Source of the DNA: a virus
Lineage: Duplodnaviria > Caudoviricetes
Length of the DNA stretch: 64,000 nucleotides
Reading direction: 5' to 3' (one strand)
IMG/VR virus record: IMGVR_UViG_3300046526_000553
Location: 64,001 to 128,000 of that record
A model generated the notes under the pieces. That model made no database searches. It worked only from the letters and a program-made list of their open reading frames with translations, and was not told the DNA's origin. Below are positions 1,264 to 11,265 of the stretch, one piece after another. Within the stretch, counting starts at the first letter, position 1; each line of letters starts with the position of its first letter. The translations under genes and the position numbers were made by a program.

Positions 1264-2106
1264 ATGGGTAAGATAAGCAAACTTGCTTTGCAAGTAGGTA
1301 CTTCCGTATTTGCAGTTGCAGCTATCACAACAGGTGCAGTTGCTGCTACAGCACCGTCACAAGGATGGCAGTTCAATAATAGTAAACAAGATAACTATAA
1401 GAGTGATAATCACAGTAGCGATAATCATAATAAAGATAATAATCGCAACGACAATAACAATGGTCGTAACGATAACAAAGACTATAATAAGGATGAGCAT
1501 AAATCTAACAAGGTTTATACCTCAAGCTACACGTATAAAAACGACAATCATAGTAGTAGTTATGACAAACATAGCTATAAAGTAACTAGCTATCACAAGA
1601 GCAAACATGATAGTAACTGTGGTTGCAGCACCAATGATAGCCACGGGTATAATAAATTTGGCTTTGACAAATATGGGTTCAATCGTCAAGGTTACGACAA
1701 GCATGGCTTCAACCGCTATGGGTTCGATTGCTACGGGTTTAATCGTCAGGGTTTTGATAAAAACGGATATAATAAGAGTGGTTACGATAAAGACGGATAT
1801 AGCCACCAAGGCTTTGACAAATATGGGTTCAATAAAGATGGCTATGATTGCAATGGTTACGGCCGCGATGGGTATAATAAGCAAGGCTACAATAAAAATG
1901 GCTGCGACAAATACGGTCGGTCAAAATACAACCACCGCAGTGAACACTTCAAAGAAGTTTCATACACGCACAAAGATGACAACCACAAACCTTGCCACCG
2001 GAATGATGGTGAAAAAAGCAAGAACTGGGATTCCCACAAATCTTACAACAAAGATTCTCAGTACAGTGATAACAACCAACAGGACAACTACAACAAAGTT
2101 GACTAG
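1264..2106 (+). CDS. secreted low-complexity protein with G(Y/F)(D/N)KxG repeats
   Basis: signal peptide, AAGGAG RBS, tandem GYDK/GFNR pentapeptides; hairpin terminator at ~2121-2155. Confidence 0.75.
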   Translation: MGKISKLALQVGTSVFAVAAITTGAVAATAPSQGWQFNNSKQDNYKSDNHSSDNHNKDNNRNDNNNGRNDNKDYNKDEHKSNKVYTSSYTYKNDNHSSSYDKHSYKVTSYHKSKHDSNCGCSTNDSHGYNKFGFDKYGFNRQGYDKHGFNRYGFDCYGFNRQGFDKNGYNKSGYDKDGYSHQGFDKYGFNKDGYDCNGYGRDGYNKQGYNKNGCDKYGRSKYNHRSEHFKEVSYTHKDDNHKPCHRNDGEKSKNWDSHKSYNKDSQYSDNNQQDNYNKVD

Positions 2107-2154
2107 TTGAGACAAAACTTAAAACACCCACGGGTAATATCGTGGGTGTTTTCT

Positions 2155-2501
2155 TTATTTCCTTTTTGTACGATGATAATATTCACTTTGATATTTTGAC
2201 CAAGCTTCTGCGCATTCTTCACACCGACAACTATATTTAGTGTAGCCAGTAATTGTCCCGTGTTTAAGGTGCCAGCCCCTATCCTCTTTGGTCTTTTTCC
2301 AATGACAGTCATGGCATAATACCTGACATTTGGCTAATTCAACATCCCGTTTAGACTCAGACCAACACCACACATTATTGGACACTTTAAGTTTAGGGTC
2401 AATATGGTCAAGTTCGAGATTCTCAGTGCTACCACACCTTATACATGATTTATCAACAAACCATTCAGCTCTCTTCTTTTCTCAATGTCCTTATAAGGCA
2501 T
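2155..2501 (-). pseudogene. HNH endonuclease, frameshifted near N-terminus
   Basis: CIRCGSTENLELDHIDP...CQVLCHDCH...CRCEEC motifs; ATG at 2501 (MPYKDIEKRR) is out of frame with the HNH body. Confidence 0.65.
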
Positions 2502-2557
2502 CCGGTTAGTATATCATACATTATGACTAATTATTAAAATAAAAAGATATATTCATA

Positions 2558-2636
2558 TGGGTCACGGGACAGGCTTCGAACCTGTAAAAATTCCACATTC
2601 AAAGTGTGGTGACTTTCCCAGTTTGTCTACCCGTGA
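2558..2636 (-). tRNA. tRNA-Gln(TTG)
   Basis: cloverleaf, ccaca-CTTTGAA-tgtgg, GGTTCGAA T-loop, encoded CCA. Confidence 0.9.
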
Positions 2637-2639
2637 TTA

Positions 2640-2713
2640 TGGCTGGGTGAGAACGGCTCGAACGCTCATCTACTGGCTCAGAACCAGTTATTCTACCTTT
2701 AAACTATCTCCCA
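2640..2713 (-). tRNA. tRNA-Gln(CTG)
   Basis: actgg-TTCTGAG-ccagt, CCA end. Confidence 0.85.
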
Positions 2714-2718
2714 TTATC

Positions 2719-2804
2719 TGGTGCCAGCAGAACGATTTGCACATTCGTAGTCCTAAGACGGCTGATTTACAGTCAGCTGGGTTTGTCTGCTTCCCTATAC
2801 TGGC
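2719..2804 (-). tRNA. tRNA-Tyr(GTA)
   Basis: gctga-CTGTAAA-tcagc, long variable arm, CCA end. Confidence 0.85.
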
Positions 2805-2809
2805 ATAAA

Positions 2810-2886
2810 TGGCCTCTCCCCTCCGAGTTGCACGGAGACCTTCTGGGCTTCAACCAGATGTGCAGATACTGCTACACCAGAAAGAG
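2810..2886 (-). tRNA. tRNA-Phe(GAA)
   Basis: tctgg-TTGAAGC-ccaga, CCA end. Confidence 0.85.
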
Positions 2887-2890
2887 TTGA

Positions 2891-2967
2891 TGGAGGTACC
2901 ATGACGAAATCGAACGCCACTCTCCTGGTTACAAATCAGGTGCATCGCCACTAAATGCTTTGGTACC
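2891..2967 (-). tRNA. tRNA-Thr(TGT)
   Basis: cctga-TTTGTAA-ccagg, CCA end. Confidence 0.85.
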
Positions 2968-2976
2968 AAGTAAACG

Positions 2977-3003
2977 AAAAAAGCTTCCTATGGAGGAAGC
3001 TTT
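2977..3003 (-). terminator. attenuator terminator of tRNA operon 1
   Basis: AAAGCTTCCT-ccat-AGGAAGCTTT followed by U-run on minus strand. Confidence 0.85.
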
Positions 3004-3032
3004 CTCGTAGAACTCATGTGAGAGTAAATACG

Positions 3033-3098
3033 TTAGCAGCTACCTCCACCAAACGGTGTGGTATATCGCTGTTGGGTAAACGTAAAATCTTTACTCAT
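3033..3098 (-). CDS. leader peptide 1 (MSKDFTFTQQRYTTPFGGGSC)
   Basis: leaderless ORF 7 nt below TTGACT-17-TACACT promoter (3105-3133); rich in Thr/Phe/Gln/Tyr; 3' end TGGAGGTAGCT complementary to terminator 5' arm. Confidence 0.8.
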   Translation of the reverse strand: MSKDFTFTQQRYTTPFGGGSC

Positions 3099-3135
3099 AT
3101 TGATAGTGTATAGAAAATTAATTAAAAAGTCAAGT

Positions 3136-3621
3136 TCAAAAATTCGGTCTCATGATATAAGTGAGCTCAGGACTAAAATAAATGATATGACCACCGGCTA
3201 TTATTCTTTCAACCACATGTAAATCTTCATGCTTTTCGTTTTGAAATGGATATTCTAAAATAACCGAACGCCTAACACTAAACCCCACTCCAATACACCC
3301 CCATTTAACTACCTGTAATGCTGGGAATAATTGTCCCGTATGAGTAAAATATTGTTTAAAATGAACTATATCTGCAGTGGGGTGTCGTTCAATTTCATGC
3401 TTCAGGGCAGCGACATAATTCGGTAATATGATATCATCATCGTCAAGAAAACTAACCCATTCCGTGGTTACCTGGGCTATTAATTGGTTTTTAATTAAAC
3501 TCTGTCCAATATGGTCATCATCAAAACCAACAAGATACGGGTTGTCCCCGATAGAATCAATAGCTCTCTGTAATGTATCACGCCTTACTGAAGGGATAAT
3601 AAACGTGGTTATTGGTTTCAT
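3136..3621 (-). CDS. short GT-A/family 2 glycosyltransferase
   Basis: TFIIPS..R..L.RAIDSI, EWVSFLDDDD, ED motifs. Confidence 0.75.
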   Translation of the reverse strand: MKPITTFIIPSVRRDTLQRAIDSIGDNPYLVGFDDDHIGQSLIKNQLIAQVTTEWVSFLDDDDIILPNYVAALKHEIERHPTADIVHFKQYFTHTGQLFPALQVVKWGCIGVGFSVRRSVILEYPFQNEKHEDLHVVERIIAGGHIIYFSPELTYIMRPNF

Positions 3622-3663
3622 GTATGTTGTGAGCAAGTATACCACGGTCTATAATTATATTAA

Positions 3664-3921
3664 ATGCATTTGGTTTATGACCCTAATGAACATGATTTCT
3701 TTATTGGCGAAGTACCTTTAAAAGATTTCTATATACAAGCCAGAAAAGAATCAGGGATATCGATAAATAAACTAGAACAAATAACAACATTGGCACATCC
3801 AACTTTGAGTAATATTGAGCGTGGAAATGGTAAAAAAAGTAACAGCACAAGAGCCATGCTAGCTACATTGCCCTATTTGGGTTATAACATACTAATTATA
3901 AAACGTAACAAACCAGACTAA
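3664..3921 (+). CDS. XRE-family HTH regulator
   Basis: ARKESGISINKL...TLSNIERG. Confidence 0.7.
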   Translation: MHLVYDPNEHDFFIGEVPLKDFYIQARKESGISINKLEQITTLAHPTLSNIERGNGKKSNSTRAMLATLPYLGYNILIIKRNKPD

Positions 3922-4190
3922 GTTTTTATACTATTGTCTTCCAAATTAACACTAAGGTATCTTTCTTTTCCACAGTTCGCACATTTATCCACATAATATT
4001 TATGGGTACCGAATTCCCATTTTAATGCTCTCTGATAATTATGCAATTTGCCAACTTTGCCCTTACACCACTTGCGGGTATCTTTGCTATTATGAAAATG
4101 ACCACGGGTCGGTTGACTATGGTCATGCTTGAAATCCCTTTTTATAATACCGCTCGCTCTCCACGAGCTTGAATCTTTTTTAAGTCTCAT
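3918..4190 (-). CDS. hypothetical protein (KDTRKWCKGKVG-type small phage protein)
   Basis: ORF with AAGGAG RBS and CxxC. Confidence 0.6.
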   Translation of the reverse strand: MRLKKDSSSWRASGIIKRDFKHDHSQPTRGHFHNSKDTRKWCKGKVGKLHNYQRALKWEFGTHKYYVDKCANCGKERYLSVNLEDNSIKT

Positions 4191-4659
4191 ATAACTCCTT
4201 TGTTAAACGATACTTAGGCTTGATTGCAACTTTACTGTTACCTGATTTTTTATATGGTTTGCAAAGCCCGCATCCATGATAGCCAGGCTTTTTCTTATGA
4301 TGCGCCATTTCACCTGCCTCCTCTCATTTAATGATATTTGGTCGAAGCTTCTGCTGCCTGAGCTGGTGAGGCTGCAGGACTTTTGGTGGGGAGGAGATGA
4401 ATTCCTGGTTGTCACATCTCATGACCTAGTTTTATGCGACTCTTTGGGTCTTAGGGCGTCGCACCTTGATTAGAGGCTAGCCCCCTTTAACGTCTACTTT
4501 ACCTATGTGTTATTGCTAACTAAATGGTTATGTTAACCTACGAAAATCATTTCCGGCGATTTAAACGTACCACAACCAACCACGTCGCTGCTGAGCAGCC
4601 CAGCCTTTTCCGTCACTCCCCATTAGCATTATACACCATCGTAAATATATTTCAAGATA

Positions 4660-4733
4660 TGGAGCCGCCGACAGGAATTGAACCTGCTTTATCAGTTTTG
4701 CAAACTGTTCGCTTGCCATCTGCGTCCAGCGGC
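4660..4733 (-). tRNA. tRNA-Cys(GCA)
   Basis: anticodon loop TTGCAAA, GGTTCAA T-loop, CCA. Confidence 0.9.
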
Positions 4734-4736
4734 TTA

Positions 4737-4822
4737 TGGCGGTAGATTGACATCCCGACTGTCATACCTTTCGGCACCATCCGTTTAGCAAACGGAGCCA
4801 GCTCCCAGCTGGTTAATCTACC
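4737..4822 (-). tRNA. tRNA-Ser(GCT)
   Basis: tccgt-TTGCTAA-acgga, long variable arm, atypical T-loop, CCA. Confidence 0.8.
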
Positions 4823-4825
4823 CTG

Positions 4826-4911
4826 TGGAGGAGAGCCAGAGACTCGCACTCTGAAGCCTGTCACAGCCATTTGTTTTCAAAACAAATTCCTCATCTAGCC
4901 GGATACTCTCC
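4826..4911 (-). tRNA. tRNA-Ser(TGA)
   Basis: tttgt-TTTGAAA-acaaa, variable arm, CCA. Confidence 0.85.
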
Positions 4912-4914
4912 ATA

Positions 4915-5166
4915 TTATTCATGTTTTTTCCTTCTACCTGTACGCCAGCGCCATTCATTTGTAATATCGGCATTTGCCCTTCTACACAAATCGCATCGGC
5001 ACTTATAGTAATCATATCCTTGTTTTGTACCATGCTTAAGCCCATAACCCATATCTCGTCTGGTTTTTTCAGCGTGGCATTCATGGCAAAGAATCTGACA
5101 TTTAGCAAGTTCAGCTTCCTTCCGTTCCTTCCCCCATGTCCAGATGTTATGGCTGACTTTCAGTTT
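4915..5166 (-). pseudogene. C-terminal half of HNH endonuclease (paralog of 2155-2501)
   Basis: KLKVSHNIWTW...ELAKCQILCHECH...CRCDLC, no start codon. Confidence 0.7.
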
Positions 5167-5200
5167 GGAGACAGATAGTTTACTATTAGCCTAAACCCCT
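5164..5200 (-). pseudogene. tRNA-Trp(CCA) 5' half only
   Basis: AGGGGTT acceptor strand, D arm, TCTGT-CTCCAA, then joins HNH fragment. Confidence 0.7.
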
Positions 5201-5205
5201 ATAAA

Positions 5206-5236
5206 GCAAAAACCGCCATTTCGGGTCGGGCGGTTT
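5206..5236 (-). terminator. attenuator terminator of tRNA operon 2
   Basis: AAACCGCC...GGCGGTTTTT. Confidence 0.8.
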
Positions 5237-5278
5237 CGCATATGTTTTGATAGTTGTGTCAGGTACGTGAAAACATAT

Positions 5279-5341
5279 TTAGCCAACCGCTCCTTTACAG
5301 AGCCACAAACTCGATAATGATTGACTTATAACTTTTTCCAT
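5279..5341 (-). CDS. leader peptide 2 (MEKVISQSLSSLWLCKGAVG)
   Basis: leaderless ORF 7 nt below TTGACT-17-TACTAT (5348-5376); Ser/Leu/Trp/Cys cluster; GCGGTT complementary to terminator arm AACCGC. Confidence 0.8.
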   Translation of the reverse strand: MEKVISQSLSSLWLCKGAVG

Positions 5342-5398
5342 ATAAAAATAGTATCAAACTATACACCAGAAGTCAAGGTGCACAGCTTATTGTACAAA

Positions 5399-5755
5399 CT
5401 ATAAATCGGGCATATCCTCAACTTGTTCAATGAATTCGCCCATAAATCTCCTACTGGCATCGATTCCTTTATCAAATAAATCCATTGGAGAGGGTACGGC
5501 ATTAATCAAATGTATGCCCGTATAAATTAAACCGGCAGATAGAACGTAGCGTCCGACTTTATGCTCCATGCCACGAGTAAAGGCAGCACCCAACGTTTCC
5601 TTACCAAACACATCACAAGCCACTACATACGCTCCAAGACCGCCCCAGAATAAAGTACCTTGGTGCTCATTAGTTAGGGTATTTACCTTTTCCTTGAAGC
5701 TCATACTTATAGTATACAGCCTAAACTGGGCACCGGGGAAAGCTACATCTTCCAT
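5399..5755 (-). CDS. small membrane protein (start probably at MSFKE)
   Basis: ORF track, hydrophobic segments. Confidence 0.55.
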   Translation of the reverse strand: MEDVAFPGAQFRLYTISMSFKEKVNTLTNEHQGTLFWGGLGAYVVACDVFGKETLGAAFTRGMEHKVGRYVLSAGLIYTGIHLINAVPSPMDLFDKGIDASRRFMGEFIEQVEDMPDL

Positions 5756-5822
5756 GGTGCCCTACTACAACAAAAAGAGAGACCGAATACACAGCCTCTC
5801 TTCAGGGAGTACCTAGTCTTAA

Positions 5823-6170
5823 CTAAGTTGCAGAAACGTCTCCAGCCTGGGGAGTTTCAGCTGGAGGAGTCTCTTCGGGCGGAGTTGGCTCTACTGGAGG
5901 TGTCGTGTCAGCCGGAGGAGTTGTTTCCGGTGCTGTGACAGTAAAGCCTGCAGCTGTAAGGGCATCGACAAGTGGTTGTTGACCAAATACTTCGACAAGT
6001 CCCTTAGTCTGGATAGCTTGGACGACCGCTGTTGTTACGGGGTCTTCTACTGGTGGTGGTGTCGGGACAAGATTTGCAACAGCAGTTGCTAGTGCCTGTA
6101 CATCCGCATCAACTTTGACTTCTTCTGCAAGTAAGTCTTGGACTGCTTGCTGGAACTGAGTTAAATCCAT
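5823..6170 (-). CDS. acidic Pro/Thr-rich hypothetical protein
   Basis: AGGAG RBS, ORF track. Confidence 0.65.
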   Translation of the reverse strand: MDLTQFQQAVQDLLAEEVKVDADVQALATAVANLVPTPPPVEDPVTTAVVQAIQTKGLVEVFGQQPLVDALTAAGFTVTAPETTPPADTTPPVEPTPPEETPPAETPQAGDVSAT

Positions 6171-6235
6171 TATATTTCTCCTATCTTTAAATTTCTATTT
6201 TTATTGTAACAGGGGTTTAGTATGTCTGTCAAAGA

Positions 6236-6309
6236 TGGTGAAGGCAATGGAATTCGAATCCATATTACCGGAGTGAAAATCCAGCTTCCTGCCGTTAGAA
6301 GATGCCTCC
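6236..6309 (-). tRNA. tRNA-Glu(TTC)
   Basis: ctgga-TTTTCAC-tccgg, CCA. Confidence 0.9.
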
Positions 6310-6312
6310 ATA

Positions 6313-6387
6313 TGGGGCGCATAAGGAGAATTGAACTCCTATTATATGATTGAGATTCATATTTCCTGTCCGTTAGAAGATATGCGC
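6313..6387 (-). tRNA. tRNA-Glu(CTC)
   Basis: tatga-ATCTCAA-tcata, CCA. Confidence 0.85.
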
Positions 6388-6391
6388 TTAT

Positions 6392-6464
6392 TGGTACCCG
6401 ATTCCGGCTCGAACGGAATCCTCTTCATGTAAAAAAGTCGCTCTGCCAATTGAGCTAATCGGGC
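6392..6464 (-). tRNA. tRNA-Val(TAC)
   Basis: loop TTTACAT, canonical D and T arms, CCA. Confidence 0.85.
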
Positions 6465-6468
6465 TTGA

Positions 6469-6543
6469 TGGTTAGGCATATCTGGGTCGAACAGATGACT
6501 TCACTATATAAGAGTGACATTTTGGCCGTTAAACTAATGCCTA
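6469..6543 (-). tRNA. tRNA-Ile(TAT)
   Basis: tcact-CTTATAT-agtga, CCA. Confidence 0.85.
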
Positions 6544-6550
6544 TTATCTT

Positions 6551-6751
6551 AGTGAGCGAGTAATGCACTTTTCCGATATTTTCCCGATTCTCTTTTTCTG
6601 GCGTCCCAGAAAGTATTACGGTCTCTTTAGGGGCATATAGGGAAGACTGTGTTGATTTCCCTTTACCCTCGACGGGTTCTTGGATTGGCTCACTACACCA
6701 ATCTTCAGCATTACACTAACCAGCGATGGAGCTAAGGGTGTTTCGCTCACC
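6551..6751 (-). ncRNA. ~200-nt structured RNA inside tRNA operon 3
   Basis: closing stem GGTGAGCGA/TCGCTCACT, several internal hairpins, not a cloverleaf. Confidence 0.55.
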
Positions 6752-6752
6752 T

Positions 6753-6826
6753 TGGTTGAACTGCGTGGTAATGCTCCACGGTTGGCATCTTATCAGAATG
6801 CTGTCCTACTTTTGAACGACAGTTCA
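6753..6826 (-). tRNA. tRNA-Ile(GAT)
   Basis: gcatt-CTGATAA-gatgc, atypical T-loop, CCA. Confidence 0.8.
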
Positions 6827-6830
6827 TTAT

Positions 6831-6907
6831 TGGAGGGTCTGGGGGTACTCGAAACCCCTTTAGCTGGCTTAAAAGGCCAGGGCCTCGTCCATTTCGGCAT
6901 CAGACCC
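6831..6907 (-). tRNA. tRNA-Lys(TTT)
   Basis: ctggc-CTTTTAA-gccag, CCA. Confidence 0.85.
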
Positions 6908-6914
6908 ATAGGTA

Positions 6915-6990
6915 TGGTACTCTCGGCAAGATTCGAACTTGCAAAAAAGCTGTTTCGAAGACAGGTTATCACTCCGATGATTGCGAGAGC
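6915..6990 (-). tRNA. tRNA-Arg(TCG)
   Basis: ctgt-CTTCGAA-acag, CCA. Confidence 0.8.
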
Positions 6991-6991
6991 T

Positions 6992-7064
6992 TGGTTCCGC
7001 TGTTTGGACTTTAACCAAAACCTTTAAGCTTAGAACACTTTTATGCTTATTACACCACAGCGGC
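6992..7064 (-). tRNA. tRNA-Arg(TCT), degenerate
   Basis: loop GTTCTAA, weak stems, CCA. Confidence 0.65.
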
Positions 7065-7068
7065 AAAT

Positions 7069-7143
7069 TGGAGGGCTTGGAGGGACTCGAACCCACTTAA
7101 GCTTATTTAAGAGATAAGTACCTAACCGTTCGGCATCAAGCCC
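7069..7143 (-). tRNA. tRNA-Lys(CTT)
   Basis: cttat-CTCTTAA-ataag, CCA. Confidence 0.9.
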
Positions 7144-7149
7144 GTTACA

Positions 7150-7608
7150 TTAAATATGTTTCCATGTATCTCGATTTAAGACATGCGTTATCGTTTTACC
7201 ATTTAAGCCGTATTCTCTAGAGAGCCTACGCCATCCTATACCAGTTTCTTTATGGCGTCTCCTTATTTCTAATACTTGTTCTGTGGTAAGCTTACTTGCA
7301 TGATGCTTCTCCCCAAAGCTACGTTCAAGGGGGATAAACTTACGCCCTTTTTGTAAAGCATCTACAAGATTATCACTGTAAGTCCCCAGCCACAAATGTT
7401 CAGGATTAACGCATAATCGGACATCACAGGTATGGCAGACTAACATTCCTTTTGGTATTTCACCATAAGTAAGCATAAATGCTACACGATGTGAATCTAT
7501 AACTTTATCTCCAAGTCTAAAACGACCATAACCATTGCTATTTTTAGCAGCGACCCATAGAATGCATCCGCTACCAGCTATCTCAGCTTTACTCCAAAAA
7601 CGTTGCAT
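7150..7608 (-). CDS. HNH homing endonuclease inserted in tRNA array
   Basis: RFWSK...CILW...GYGRF...HRVAF...VCHTCDVRLCVNPEHLWLGT motif plus C-terminal HTH. Confidence 0.9.
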   Translation of the reverse strand: MQRFWSKAEIAGSGCILWVAAKNSNGYGRFRLGDKVIDSHRVAFMLTYGEIPKGMLVCHTCDVRLCVNPEHLWLGTYSDNLVDALQKGRKFIPLERSFGEKHHASKLTTEQVLEIRRRHKETGIGWRRLSREYGLNGKTITHVLNRDTWKHI

Positions 7609-7650
7609 CGGTTTAGTATACCATGCACACACTTTGATTGTCAAGATACA

Positions 7651-7724
7651 TGGCTGGCACGGCCAGATTCAAACTGGCATTTTTCGGGTAACAACCGAGA
7701 GTCCTATCATTGGACGACACGCCA
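7651..7724 (-). tRNA. tRNA-Asn(GTT)
   Basis: loop TTGTTAC, CCA. Confidence 0.85.
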
Positions 7725-7742
7725 ATATTGTTAAAGTGCTTA

Positions 7743-7816
7743 TGGTACGGGTAGTCGGATTCAAACCGACGAGTCCAACTTGGAAGGATGGCAGTTTATC
7801 ACTAGCTTATACCCGT
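7743..7816 (-). tRNA. tRNA-Gly(TCC)
   Basis: loop CTTCCAA, CCA. Confidence 0.85.
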
Positions 7817-7821
7817 GTATT

Positions 7822-7897
7822 TGGTCGCGATAGACGGCAATTGCAGCCGTTCCTTAGACTTCACAGGTCTATGTGCTCCTACTTACACCACTACGCG
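7822..7897 (-). tRNA. tRNA-His(GTG)
   Basis: tagac-CTGTGAA-gtcta, CCA. Confidence 0.8.
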
Positions 7898-7904
7898 TGT
7901 ATTT

Positions 7905-7978
7905 TGGTGGAGAATAACGGTTATGCTCCGTTGTCTACTGCTTGCAAAGCAATTAGTCTACTATTGACCTAATTCCCC
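7905..7978 (-). tRNA. tRNA-Ala(TGC)
   Basis: GGGG 5' end with G3-U70, loop TTTGCAA, CCA. Confidence 0.85.
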
Positions 7979-7981
7979 TTG

Positions 7982-8058
7982 TGGTGCCAGGTTTGAGTAT
8001 TGCACTCAACTTATACTAGTTTATGAGGCTAGCAAGAACTCTATGCCTTCCACCTGGT
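7982..8058 (-). tRNA. tRNA-Met(CAT) (elongator Met or Ile2 not resolved)
   Basis: loop CTCATAA, CCA. Confidence 0.75.
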
Positions 8059-8062
8059 ATAT

Positions 8063-8137
8063 TGGCGTCCATAAGGAATTTTGAAATCCTGACCTTCCGC
8101 CTGACAAACGGGTGCTCTGCCTCTGAGCTATATGGAC
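8063..8137 (-). tRNA. tRNA-Asp(GTC)
   Basis: loop TTGTCAG, CCA. Confidence 0.85.
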
Positions 8138-8140
8138 ATA

Positions 8141-8215
8141 TGGTCTGGAACGAGAATTTCGCAATCTCGGCCTCCGGTTCCCAAAACCGGCGCTCTGCTT
8201 CTGAGCTAGTCCCAG
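8141..8215 (-). tRNA. tRNA-Pro(TGG)
   Basis: ccggt-TTTGGGA-accgg, CCA. Confidence 0.85.
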
Positions 8216-8221
8216 TTATGT

Positions 8222-8252
8222 AAAAAGCCCGCTTCTTTTGGTTGCAGGCTTT
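8222..8252 (-). terminator. attenuator terminator of tRNA operon 3
   Basis: AAAGCCTGC...GCGGGCTTTTT. Confidence 0.8.
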
Positions 8253-8278
8253 GATTTGTCTATGTGCTTGAGCTATTC

Positions 8279-8359
8279 TTATACGCCTGCAATCAACCCT
8301 TTATCGCCATGATTGGCTTCGGGCTTATTAATGGTATTCGGGCGTATGAATTTACTCAT
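8279..8359 (-). CDS. leader peptide 3 (MSKFIRPNTINKPEANHGDKGLIAGV)
   Basis: leaderless ORF 7 nt below TTGCAT-17-TACACT (8366-8394); TTGCAGGC near stop complementary to terminator arm GCCTGCAA. Confidence 0.8.
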   Translation of the reverse strand: MSKFIRPNTINKPEANHGDKGLIAGV

Positions 8360-8398
8360 ATTGCTAGTGTAGCATACTGATTTTAGAAATGCAAGTTT

Positions 8399-8566
8399 TT
8401 ATTTACTGTTCCTTATCAGTTGTCGAATAATTTTACGTACCCACCCCGATGCGGTCATGCCTTCATCGTGCAAGATATCTATGAATTCGTCATAGGTATC
8501 CATGTCAACGTATACGACGATGCGTCTTTGCTGTTTTTGTTTTATCCTTGGGCTTAGTTGACTCAT
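8399..8566 (-). CDS. 55-aa possible ribbon-helix-helix protein
   Basis: MSQLSPRIKQKQQRRIVVYVDMDTYDEF...SGWVRKII read by eye; overlaps Ro60 3' end. Confidence 0.45.
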   Translation of the reverse strand: MSQLSPRIKQKQQRRIVVYVDMDTYDEFIDILHDEGMTASGWVRKIIRQLIRNSK

Positions 8567-10046
8567 ATAAATCAATCTTCTCTATCTTATTTACTAATGC
8601 GTTCTTATCGGTATTTAACAACTTTAACACGTCGAAAATTTTGTCTGAAAATCCAGCAATCTGATAGACCTGATTTTCAGGAAACTGCATCGTACCATAG
8701 CCACTTAAGTCAAAAGCGTAGATATATGGATTAGCACCTGTGCGCTTTTTATAATCCTCAAACTGAGCTTTTGGTGTGTAGTAACCTATCCATGCCTGCA
8801 TATCACTGAATATGAAGATGTGGTCATAGGCACGGCTAGCGGTTTCAAAGATAGCGTGAAAGTTAGTGCCATGACCTACAGAAGTGGGGGTGTTAGAACC
8901 ATAGCCATCGTTGCAGTCAGCTAACCAACGCAACTGACCTAGCACACTATCCTGTGTCACATTGTAATACTTGGCAGTATCACCAAAATACATGAAATCA
9001 GCATTGCTTTTCTTTGCCATTGCTACACCGAATAAAGCACCAATTTCGAAATTAGTAGCCTTGCTGCGTTCGCTCATAGAGCTATCCATGCTGCCACTGT
9101 GGTCAACGACCACTAAGGCATTATCGAAAGCAGGCATGTTATTGATTGAAATATCTAGTGCATTGCCAATAGCAGCCAGTGTTTTACGGGCTTCTGGACC
9201 TGCACCCCCATCAATTTCAGCAATTTCCTTATAGGCACTGAAATAACGGAACGGTAGAATCAATGATTTCTTGATAGCCTGCTCATTCTGCAATTGCTTC
9301 AAGGCAATATCAAGCACTTCAGGAGCCTGTTCAATAATATTTCTGAGGTTCCGTAGTAATGCAAACGCTGGAAGTTTGTCTTCCTTCAAAAGCTTAATCC
9401 ATGTATCGGCCTTAAGCTTATCCTTTTCAGCTTCGGTCTTTGCTTTCTGACCAGCCTGGACTAAGCCAGTCTCCCATGTATCAGAGGCACGTAAGGTACC
9501 TTTAATAAGCTGTTGAACAGCTTCGGTGTGAACCGGGTGAACTAGATTAGCTACATCAACAAGACTAACGTCCTTACCTTCGCCACGATATTTAGCTAAA
9601 TTGTAAGCGTTAAAATGTCCAAATGCCTGTGCAAAACCACGCTTAAGTGCATTAGGCTCTGTCTGATGACCAAGTGAATAATAATATGATAGAATTTCTG
9701 TCATATCATCTGGACGACGAATAACATTCTCGAAGAAATACTTTGTCCATGCTTCGCCCTTTACTCGATTAGCAATTTCACCAGCAACCACGTGGCTGAC
9801 ACTACGCATACCGAATTCATTACGAGCGTACACAGCAGCTTTGGCTGCAAACATAGGGTCTACGCTATTAAGTAATTCCTTGAGTTTATCAATGCCATCA
9901 TCAGAACTTCTATAATATTGATTCTGTACAAAACTTGTTAATAGGATTGATACAAACTCCAGCTTAGGGTTTTGCTGGAAAGCTTGACCACCAGCATTAT
10001 TAATAACCATAGTTGGTGAAGTTGTAGCGTTGAATCTACTGCTCAT
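8505..10046 (-). CDS. rsr: Ro60/TROVE-vWA RNA-binding protein
   Basis: NNAGGQAF N-terminus, YARNEFGMRS, ALLRNLRN TROVE motif, DHSGSM MIDAS vWA, IFSDMQ, IAGFSD. Confidence 0.95.
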   Translation of the reverse strand: MSSRFNATTSPTMVINNAGGQAFQQNPKLEFVSILLTSFVQNQYYRSSDDGIDKLKELLNSVDPMFAAKAAVYARNEFGMRSVSHVVAGEIANRVKGEAWTKYFFENVIRRPDDMTEILSYYYSLGHQTEPNALKRGFAQAFGHFNAYNLAKYRGEGKDVSLVDVANLVHPVHTEAVQQLIKGTLRASDTWETGLVQAGQKAKTEAEKDKLKADTWIKLLKEDKLPAFALLRNLRNIIEQAPEVLDIALKQLQNEQAIKKSLILPFRYFSAYKEIAEIDGGAGPEARKTLAAIGNALDISINNMPAFDNALVVVDHSGSMDSSMSERSKATNFEIGALFGVAMAKKSNADFMYFGDTAKYYNVTQDSVLGQLRWLADCNDGYGSNTPTSVGHGTNFHAIFETASRAYDHIFIFSDMQAWIGYYTPKAQFEDYKKRTGANPYIYAFDLSGYGTMQFPENQVYQIAGFSDKIFDVLKLLNTDKNALVNKIEKIDLYESTKPKDKTKTAKTHRRIR

Positions 10047-10059
10047 CTCATTCTCCTTG

Positions 10060-10128
10060 TAGGCGAGTAAAGTGCGGTTTGTGGGTTTTCAATTCCATTT
10101 GAAGTAACAAACCGCTCGCTGCGCCCTA
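10060..10128 (-). ncRNA. short Y-RNA-like gene (Y3)
   Basis: GCGAGCGGTTTG..TACTTC 5' arm pairs with CAAACCGCACTTTACTCGC; immediately 5' of rsr. Confidence 0.75.
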
Positions 10129-10146
10129 GTTGATAAAGTACCTTTA

Positions 10147-10276
10147 TGTGCGAGTAAATCATGGTTGGCGTTTCCCTTTCGGGATTCAGTTGGAGTTGAA
10201 CCAACAATCTTTACAATTGAAATGTAACGCTTAAACCAAATAAGCTATGAAGTAGCCAGACCATTCGCTACGCACA
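10147..10276 (-). ncRNA. Y-RNA-like gene with tRNA-like domain (Y2)
   Basis: same end motifs; internal D arm, anticodon arm and GGTTCAACTCC T arm. Confidence 0.8.
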
Positions 10277-10291
10277 GTGTAAAAGTTCTAA

Positions 10292-10424
10292 TGTACGGGT
10301 AAATTGTGGTTTGCAGATGATGACTTTCGTCATCGTTTCCAGCTTTCGCCGTTTTAGGGTTTGAACCTAATATTACATTTGTGGATGTAAATTATCCGAA
10401 GTAGCAAACCGCTCGCCTCGTACA
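10292..10424 (-). ncRNA. Y-RNA-like gene with partial tRNA-like domain (Y1)
   Basis: same end motifs; T arm TTAGGTTCAAACCCTAA; promoter TTGACT-17-TATTAT at 10431-10459. Confidence 0.8.
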
Positions 10425-10518
10425 CATCCTATAATAGGGCATAATTGTGCACAAGTCAACACCTTTTTTATAAATTAAAAAGCCACCTGATAAAGATGGC
10501 TTCCTAATCTACCCGTTT

Positions 10519-11265
10519 TTATCTTTGAAAGGCTTTTCTACTTCTTAGGTAGATAAATCTTCCGGCATAACCGAGCGCACTAACGCCTAGAAATGCTGGA
10601 ACGATAGAATTGCCTGCTCCAGTATTTGGCAATGTGGTCGGTTGATTTTGCGCAGTTGGCGTGAATGTCTTTGCTGGCTCACCTGCTCCCTTGCCTGTGT
10701 ACAATGGCGGTGGTACCGATGGAGGTGTTCCAGTAGGTGATGGCGGAGGAGTTACTGGTGCTGGAGGAGTAATCGGCGGGGGTACTGGAGGGGGTGTAGT
10801 TTTATCGCAAGGGCATGGTTTATTAACATGCCTCAGGTGATGTATATACACCTTTTTATCACAAGGTTTCTTGTGCTCATAATTTTTCTGATAAGATGTT
10901 TTAGTATCAACTTTCGTGTATGTCTCTTCGTGTGATACTTCTTTTTTCTTCTTATCACAGGGCTTCTTTTCATGTTCATTTACAATCCGTGGATGAGACT
11001 GTGGGATGACATCAGAATCTGATAAATACGGTTTCTGATATTCAGGCTGTTGTTGATTATCTTTCATATTCTGATTATTGCAATCACTATGATGGCTTTG
11101 TTTATCCTGATTATCCCAATTAGTATCTTTTGTATAGTGTGAATTATCCTGCTGACCACCGCTACAATCGATTGTTGCTAAGGCTGGTGCTGTACTAAGA
11201 GCAAAAACCCCAACCACAATAGTCGGAATGCTCCATACATATTGCCTATATTTATGTTTAATCAT
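10519..11265 (-). CDS. secreted LPXTG-type cell-surface protein
   Basis: signal peptide, Pro-rich linker, LPNTG + TM + basic tail. Confidence 0.8.
   Translation of the reverse strand: MIKHKYRQYVWSIPTIVVGVFALSTAPALATIDCSGGQQDNSHYTKDTNWDNQDKQSHHSDCNNQNMKDNQQQPEYQKPYLSDSDVIPQSHPRIVNEHEKKPCDKKKKEVSHEETYTKVDTKTSYQKNYEHKKPCDKKVYIHHLRHVNKPCPCDKTTPPPVPPPITPPAPVTPPPSPTGTPPSVPPPLYTGKGAGEPAKTFTPTAQNQPTTLPNTGAGNSIVPAFLGVSALGYAGRFIYLRSRKAFQR

Follow-up and report, generated by a model that had tools for sequence, protein, structure and literature searches.

Candidate leader-peptide attenuators upstream of three sets of tRNA genes in a phage genome

Introduction

How does a phage that carries a large array of tRNA genes set the dose of each tRNA? 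The question is raised by a stretch of 64,000 nucleotides (nt), hereafter called the window, that corresponds to bases 64001-128000 of the IMG/VR virus record IMGVR_UViG_3300046526_000553 (143,778 bp; estimated completeness, 94%). Every tRNA gene of this genome, 24 in total, lies on the minus strand of the window between positions 2558 and 8215. Regulation of tRNA genes is known at the level of their promoters, through growth-rate and stringent control. In the window, each of three groups of tRNA genes is preceded by a promoter, a leaderless open reading frame (ORF) of 20-26 codons and an intrinsic terminator, a succession that a first-pass annotation of the sequence had reported and that is present as it was described. 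The same annotation proposed that the ORFs are the leaders of peptide attenuators matched to the tRNA sets that they gate. Match statistics, the geometry of the RNA pairings and co-variation in relatives all support this proposal. We consider it likely that the three units are ribosome-mediated leader-peptide attenuators of the trp/thr type, placed on tRNA genes, which sense the speed at which the cognate amino acids are decoded and so exert feedback on tRNA supply. A full-text literature search found no account of leader-peptide attenuation controlling tRNA genes.

Results

Three units with a common anatomy

All three units are read from the minus strand. Unit 1 begins with a promoter at 3105-3133 (TTGACT, 17-nt spacer, TACACT), followed by leader ORF 1 (3033-3098; 21 codons plus stop) and by terminator 1 (2977-3006), which has a 13-bp stem, a 4-nt loop and a T run. 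In unit 2, a promoter at 5348-5376 (TTGACT, 17-nt spacer, TACTAT, with TG before the -10) precedes leader ORF 2 (5279-5341; 20 codons plus stop) and a terminator at 5206-5239 with a stem, an 11-nt loop and a U tract. The promoter of unit 3 occupies 8366-8394 (-35 TTGCAT at 8394-8389, 17-nt spacer, -10 TACACT at 8371-8366); leader ORF 3 (8279-8359; ATG at 8359) has 26 codons plus stop, and terminator 3 (8221-8252) combines a 9-bp stem with an 11-nt loop and a U tract. An independent consensus scan calls promoters 1 and 2 and terminator 1.

The ATG lies exactly 6 nt past the -10 hexamer in all three units, so that the predicted transcription start is the A of the ATG itself. This layout is common elsewhere in the genome. 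Promoter-like sites with an ATG 5-8 nt after the -10 number 79, against 32-42 in the other four-base spacing classes; 21 of the 79 open ORFs of at least 60 codons, as compared to 4-6 for the other classes (binomial P = 0.0046). These 21 ORFs, which begin 6-8 nt past a -35/-10 pair whose -10 is often of the extended TGn type, include the HNH endonuclease gene found within unit 3 (see below); examples start at window positions 7608, 25389, 48069, 51194 and 60405 (minus strand). The occurrence of 21 long ORFs with the same -10-to-ATG layout makes leaderless translation plausible. Leaderless mRNAs look like normal practice for this phage and its host, which hints at a host that translates such mRNAs efficiently. 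Together with the frame specificity of the composition signal (see below), the shared layout gives indirect support to translation of the leader ORFs.

Leader composition follows the downstream tRNA set

The tRNAs of unit 1 (2558-2967, the first gene beginning at 2967) are Thr(TGT), Phe(GAA), Tyr(GTA), Gln(CTG) and Gln(TTG). With the start codon excluded, as in all counts given here, 10 of the 20 codons of leader 1 specify amino acids of this set: three Phe, four Thr, two Gln (one CAA, one CAG) and one Tyr. This agrees with the first-pass annotation, which had placed a leader with both Gln codons before these five tRNAs. Unit 2 (4660-4911) holds Ser(TGA) at 4911-4826, Ser(GCT) at approximately 4825-4735 and Cys(GCA) at 4733-4660. 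Its leader contains four Ser codons, of both the TCR and the AGY type, and one Cys codon (5 of 19 in-set), as well as three Leu codons and one Trp codon. A Trp tRNA had also been assigned to this unit; the two Ser tRNAs and the Cys tRNA are there, whereas no Trp tRNA was found at any threshold anywhere in the 143,778-bp genome, which has no Leu tRNA either. In unit 3, a proximal group (7651-8215, with Pro first at 8215) comprises Pro(TGG), Asp(GTC), Met(CAT), Ala(TGC), His(GTG), Gly(TCC) and Asn(GTT), and a distal group (6236-7143) comprises Lys(CTT), Arg(TCT), Arg(TCG), Lys(TTT), Ile(GAT), Ile(TAT), Val(TAC), Glu(CTC) and Glu(TTC). The 12 amino acids of this set, which is the one originally annotated, are all represented in leader 3, where 21 of 25 codons are in-set. 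Such full 12-member coverage is managed by just 3% of short ORFs.

When each leader is scored against sets 1, 2 and 3, the counts are 10/3/7 for leader 1, 1/5/9 for leader 2 and 2/1/21 for leader 3 (chi-square P = 3.6e-4), and permuting the residues among the three leaders reached the observed diagonal in 1e-5 of trials. All 1,745 other short ORFs of the genome served as a further reference, against which leaders 1, 2 and 3 have empirical P values of 0.006, 0.056 and 0.013, respectively. Every member of a set is present in the cognate leader (4, 2 and 12 amino acids; 18 of 18 in the window).

Leaders and arrays co-vary in relatives

A cultured close relative was not found: megablast and blastn searches against 50,697 phage records returned only scattered tRNA and HNH fragments, and the terminase had no tblastn match in cultured phages. 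Searches of IMG/VR with the Ro protein, with the start motif common to the leaders and with a motif of a Gln tRNA yielded no close relative either. The useful relatives, L003 and L001/L002, were reached through homologues of the Ro/TROVE protein encoded just upstream of unit 3 (8505-10046, minus strand). Other Ro contexts (L004-L009 and L056-L058) contain no comparable tRNA arrays. Retention of the leaders as ORFs in relatives, and their co-variation with the tRNAs, had been set beforehand as a test of the attenuator proposal.

L003 is an 84.5-kb Logan contig whose Ro and DnaB proteins are 62% and 52% identical, respectively, to those of the window phage. Its 28 tRNAs form two arrays, one (A) for Lys, Ile, Val, Met, Thr, Glu, Arg, Gly and Ala and the other (B) for Trp, Pro, Phe, Tyr, Cys, Leu, Ser, His, Asp, Asn and Gln. 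Leader A (41 codons, ATG at L003 position 4424, minus strand) has 36 of 40 codons for set A and 4 for set B; leader B (28 codons, ATG at 2869) has 21 of 27 codons for set B and 6 for set A (two-by-two Fisher P = 1.7e-8). With respect to the window, the arrays are reshuffled: the Pro, His, Asp and Asn tRNAs are grouped with Phe, Tyr and Gln, and their codons have moved to that leader; the Thr tRNA is grouped with Lys, Ile and Val, and Thr codons number eight in leader A. Downstream of leader B comes a nuclease-like ORF with weak homology to the frame found between terminator 2 and the tRNAs of unit 2 (see below), making the layout syntenic with unit 2. The L003 tRNAs at 2261-1578 (minus strand), in the array that corresponds to unit 2, include Trp and three Leu. 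This suggests that the window phage lost its Leu and Trp tRNAs, perhaps recently, and that the codons in leader 2 have remained.

The second case comes from L001/L002, contigs from National Center for Biotechnology Information (NCBI) metagenomes with a Ro protein 64% identical to that of the window phage. The L001 leader (1669-1725) has 18 codons, 8 of 17 in-set, with eight consecutive Gln/Asp/Asn/Phe codons; downstream of it are a terminator and tRNAs for precisely these four amino acids (Asp, Asn, Phe and Gln). The attenuator proposal thus withstood the test set beforehand, as both diverged relatives retain the leaders as ORFs whose content changes in step with the tRNAs.

A further element was noticed at L001 2380-2445 (plus strand), before Met and Gly tRNAs. 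It is a hairpin with a T run, whose 5' arm reads ATG-GGG-GCA-stop and whose loop contains a Met- and Gly-rich ORF of 8 codons. This element may be a matched leader in miniature and is too short for statistics.

The final leader statistics were computed against short ORFs of the same locus, since a false match in L077/L074 had shown fixed background frequencies to be unsafe; this match, the best that automated scans gave among distant phages, was the end of a gene upstream of a promoter. Combined in this way, the six leaders (the three of the window, leaders A and B of L003 and the leader of L001) give P = 1.6e-14. Of 42 amino-acid identities in the sets, 41 are present in the cognate leader. 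The signal is specific for the reading frame, with an in-set share of 68% in frame and 30-41% in the five other frames. Isoacceptor pairs are usually both sampled (CAA and CAG, AAA and AAG, ATA and ATT, TCR and AGY), and a strictly cognate codon is met by 49 of 55 anticodons. The leaders share almost no primary sequence, and the peptides have no common sequence past the first three residues. What is conserved is the architecture, with leader content tracking the array.

Predicted alternative pairings place a candidate antiterminator in the last codons of the ORF

The best complement of the 5' arm of the terminator (B) was sought, for each leader, over the whole ORF plus 10 nt. In all five leaders that have a terminator (three in the window, two in relatives), this complement (strand A) stops 1-7 nt short of the last base of the stop codon. 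It pairs more stably than random genomic segments do, with P values of 0.011, 0.015 and 0.016 for the three leaders of the window and of <0.0003 and 0.027 for the two leaders from relatives, in line with the earlier observation that the last codons of the ORFs are complementary to the terminator arm. The A:B duplexes (-13 to -23 kcal/mol) are similar in stability to the terminator hairpins (-12.5 to -18). Leader B of L003 has the strongest antiterminator of all (-23.5 kcal/mol).

In the window, strands A1 (3034-3048), A2 (5281-5294) and A3 (8284-8293) comprise the last codons of leader ORFs 1, 2 and 3 (all minus strand). Folding of growing transcripts showed that in units 1 and 2 the A:B pairing forms before the 3' arm of the terminator (C) is made: strand A1 is in the nascent-RNA minimum-energy fold at 106-112 nt, and strand A2 is in that at 112-130 nt. 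Strand A3 pairs with the 5' arm of terminator 3; in the naked RNA of unit 3, it is sequestered by codons 4-7 (8351-8339), in the manner of the 1:2 pairing of the trp leader. Sequestered A3 implies that untranslated unit 3 RNA would terminate. Unit 3 thus shows clear upstream sequestering of strand A in naked RNA, and unit 1 has it as well; the naked RNA of unit 2 prefers the antiterminator until arm C is made.

The position of the matched codons also bears on the switch. They are concentrated in the part of the ORF in which stalling would keep strand A accessible, with 72% of codons matched there and 41% in the tail (Fisher P = 0.0024).

A second pairing involves the start codon. The first 7-9 nt of the transcript, including the AUG, pair with a segment 3-17 nt past the stop codon, closing the ORF into a hairpin. 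In unit 1, the post-stop segment lies at 3021-3029 and pairs with the 5' AUG region (3097-3089); those of units 3 and 2 lie at 8274-8268 and 5274-5264 (minus strand). The clamp is in the same place in the five leaders, with P values of 0.011, 0.27, 0.032, 0.0003 and 0.058 (that of unit 2, 0.27, is not significant) and a joint P of approximately 1e-5 by Fisher combination. Here too, leader B of L003 gives the strongest pairing. In the predicted structures, a finished leader would have its start codon buried in the clamp, as would be fitting for a sensor that is used once.

Discussion

A model for the switch

From the data above, we infer that the leader ORFs are translated, that termination is effective and that the switch has the following direction. 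Transcription would start at the A of the ATG, yielding a leaderless mini-mRNA onto which a ribosome loads as it emerges from RNA polymerase. If the 20-26 codons are decoded without delay, the ribosome would reach the stop codon and cover the last 10-15 nt of the ORF, that is, strand A; arm B would then pair with arm C, and RNA polymerase would halt before the first tRNA gene. A scarce aminoacyl-tRNA, for an amino acid served by the downstream tRNAs, would stall the ribosome; a stall in the first two thirds of the ORF would leave strand A free to pair with B once B is made, so that no terminator forms and the tRNA genes are transcribed. With no ribosome on the RNA, the 5' AUG region would pair past the stop and the ORF would fold, sequestering strand A (clearly in units 1 and 3). 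The default state would be termination, and the start codon would be hidden after the first round. Since the tRNAs of the operon would relieve the stall, the outcome would be a negative feedback tuning each tRNA set to demand. In short, production of a tRNA set by the phage is probably restricted to times at which the codons of that set are decoded slowly.

Several observations weigh against this interpretation. At the RNA level, terminators 2 and 3 were missed by the simple scan, whose loop limit their 11-nt loops exceed, and leader A of L003, despite its excellent match, ends 22 nt before the first tRNA without an intrinsic terminator. The promoter of the HNH gene (7644-7615) would be able to drive the distal tRNAs of unit 3 without passing the attenuator. 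At the level of composition, leader 2 is weak taken alone (P = 0.056), and its three Leu codons and one Trp codon have no phage tRNA. Leader 2 has its Cys codon, and leader 3 its Asp and Val codons, exclusively in the tail, a region in which stalling would place the ribosome over strand A. With just 1-4 codons per amino acid, far fewer than in the classical attenuators, the leaders may have a low sensitivity to a mild shortage. Synonymous choice is no better than the codon usage of the phage predicts (P = 0.09 for anticodon coverage and 0.69 for strictly readable codons), and leader 3 lacks strictly cognate codons for the unit 3 anticodons Arg TCT, Arg TCG and Glu CTC. It is therefore by amino acid that the leaders match their tRNAs, and to call the leaders "codon-matched", as was done at first, overstated the case. 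Finally, crude automated scans of distant Ro-carrying phages with arrays (L025-L050, L071-L077 and L079-L081) produced no convincing leaders, and in the tRNA region of phage T5, neither the small ORFs nor the stretches next to promoters match the downstream tRNAs or form a leader-terminator unit.

Alternative explanations

The amino-acid level of the match leaves room for a switch that works as described and reads general amino-acid starvation, or overall translation capacity, instead of the shortage of particular tRNAs. Codons without a phage tRNA in leader 2 (Leu and Trp), and the presence of some out-of-set codons in every leader, point the same way. Such a sensor, however, does not require leaders that partition the amino acids as the arrays do (permutation P = 1e-5), still less a partition that follows the reshuffled arrays of L003 (P = 1.7e-8), and extra tRNA would be of no help against amino-acid starvation. 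We regard this alternative as unlikely.

Slightly less probable, in our view, is that the mini-ORFs are translated and matched and that their output is other than an intrinsic-terminator switch, namely access of Rho, processing or stability of the tRNA precursor, or an action of the peptide. The best matched leader, A of L003 (36 of 40), is precisely the one that lacks a terminator, and the loops of terminators 2 and 3 are unusually long. Yet five of the six leaders are followed by a hairpin with a U tract, and the complement of its 5' arm sits precisely at the end of the ORF, a position that nothing but an antiterminator explains; a function of the peptide is made unlikely by the lack of common sequence past the first three residues.

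That the ORFs are untranslated chance frames in ordinary promoter-terminator modules, serving as insulators or left over between tRNA blocks, is highly improbable: they are short, lack a Shine-Dalgarno sequence and have no database relatives, and crude automated scans do give false positives in AT-rich loci (L077), but the combined amino-acid match against locus-specific short ORFs, its frame specificity, its co-variation in two diverged relatives and the ATG at the predicted start in three of three units, a spacing similar to that of 21 long ORFs, speak together against it.

Relation to known attenuation systems

Attenuation by leader peptides is well known from enterobacterial operons. Besides trpL, hisL, pheL and leuL, there are multivalent cases such as thrL, which senses Thr and Ile, and the ilvGMEDA leader, which senses Leu, Val and Ile; these two, along with the pheST attenuator (see below), come closest to the phage units. 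The phage units resemble such attenuators in that a short ORF precedes an intrinsic terminator, in that the terminator competes with an antiterminator pairing that a ribosome at the stop codon would mask, in the proposed sensing of several amino acids by one leader and, as predicted for units 1 and 3, in an upstream pairing that would favor termination without translation. They differ from them in that they would regulate tRNA genes instead of biosynthetic enzymes, the product acting directly on the sensor, in that they are leaderless, phage-encoded, without a Shine-Dalgarno sequence and dissimilar in sequence, and in that the leaders sample up to 12 amino acids with 1-4 codons each, in place of runs of one to three amino acids.

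In E. coli, the pheST attenuator, with the pheM leader, controls phenylalanyl-tRNA synthetase. There, as in the proposed phage units, attenuation adjusts a component of the decoding machinery to the supply of charged tRNA; pheST serves one amino acid through the synthetase, whereas the phage units would control the tRNAs themselves, in sets. T-box riboswitches also choose between terminator and antiterminator, with read-through into genes of the translation apparatus when tRNA charging is inadequate. In that case, uncharged tRNA is bound directly through one specifier codon, without a ribosome; no specifier structure was found in the phage units. A search of positions 1500-9500 with Rfam at E <= 0.1 returned tRNA matches only, with no leader family (Trp, His, Thr, Leu or Phe) and no T-box. 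A weak match to Phe_leader at 10473-10569 (E = 0.51) was discarded, being the terminator that follows the ORF at 10519-11265. The novelty lies in the target, the tRNA genes; the logic and the parts are those of ribosome-mediated attenuators.

If our interpretation is true, the units constitute a direct feedback loop, in which the product of the operon, tRNA, is the molecule sensed by the leader of the operon. This would account for how phages dose large tRNA arrays, and would provide a testable handle on why phages carry tRNAs at all, be it to meet codon demand, to offset decay of the host pool or to escape defenses that cleave tRNAs. The leaders would be small natural devices that report how fast chosen sets of amino acids are decoded, and the reshuffled arrays of the relatives amount to a natural swap experiment supporting the logic. 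It seems conceivable, as a tentative extension, that the system is a self-tuning device for tRNA replacement, in which one-shot, leaderless, multi-amino-acid test ORFs sense the loss of host tRNAs, through decay of the pool or cleavage by anticodon nucleases, switch on the replacements and then shut off, thus acting as a counter-defense sensor. The part given here to anticodon nucleases is hypothetical.

Other features of the locus

At default settings, ARAGORN found 17 of the 24 tRNAs and missed seven. Relaxed settings, together with Rfam, added Ser(TGA), Ile(GAT), Arg(TCT), Ala(TGC), Met(CAT) and His(GTG), and Ser(GCT) was recognized by eye. The gene that ARAGORN called 'Cys-aca' (6464-6392) is better read as Val(TAC). 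The tRNAs of this phage lineage are atypical. Several L003 tRNAs were seen by eye to have unusual T loops.

Unit 3 is split by the HNH endonuclease gene (7150-7644, minus strand), which is itself leaderless (ATG at 7608) and has its own promoter at 7644-7615. An open frame at 4915-5178 (minus strand), between terminator 2 and the tRNAs of unit 2, matches nothing in Pfam. It shows weak similarity (38% over 39 amino acids) to the C-terminal Cys/His motif of the L003 ORF at the same position and is probably the remnant of a nuclease gene. A structured RNA of 209 nt (6752-6544, minus strand), whose ends pair (z = -2.75), separates tRNA-Ile(GAT) from tRNA-Ile(TAT). It matches no Rfam family and resembles the "stable RNAs of unknown function" annotated within the tRNA region of phage T5 (NC_005859). 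The T5 region is similar in other respects as well, being a large tRNA cluster broken by HNH genes, small ORFs and stable RNAs, with several sigma-70 promoters.

Another RNA, of 238 nt, is predicted at 4621-4384 (minus strand), from its own strong promoter (4655-4628) just after tRNA-Cys. It starts with GGGGAG and ends with the complementary CUCCCC followed by ACCA, resembling the closure of an acceptor stem with a CCA-type end; the z-score of its fold is just -1.45. A transfer-messenger RNA (tmRNA) was considered and rejected, as neither ARAGORN nor Rfam recognizes a tmRNA or a tRNA in this sequence.

The Ro/TROVE gene upstream of unit 3 (see above) is preceded by a promoter of its own (10456-10425) and by a non-coding RNA of approximately 400 nt (10047-10456, minus strand). 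The latter has a tRNA-like domain at 10251-10185 (50 bits) and a motif repeated twice, and is probably a cluster of Y-RNA-like (YrlA-type) RNAs. Weak YrlA matches occur at the same place in L003 and L001. In L003, right after the last tRNA of array B (approximately 906-620, minus strand), there is an apparent homologue of ribosomal protein S10, recognized by eye, with its own promoter.

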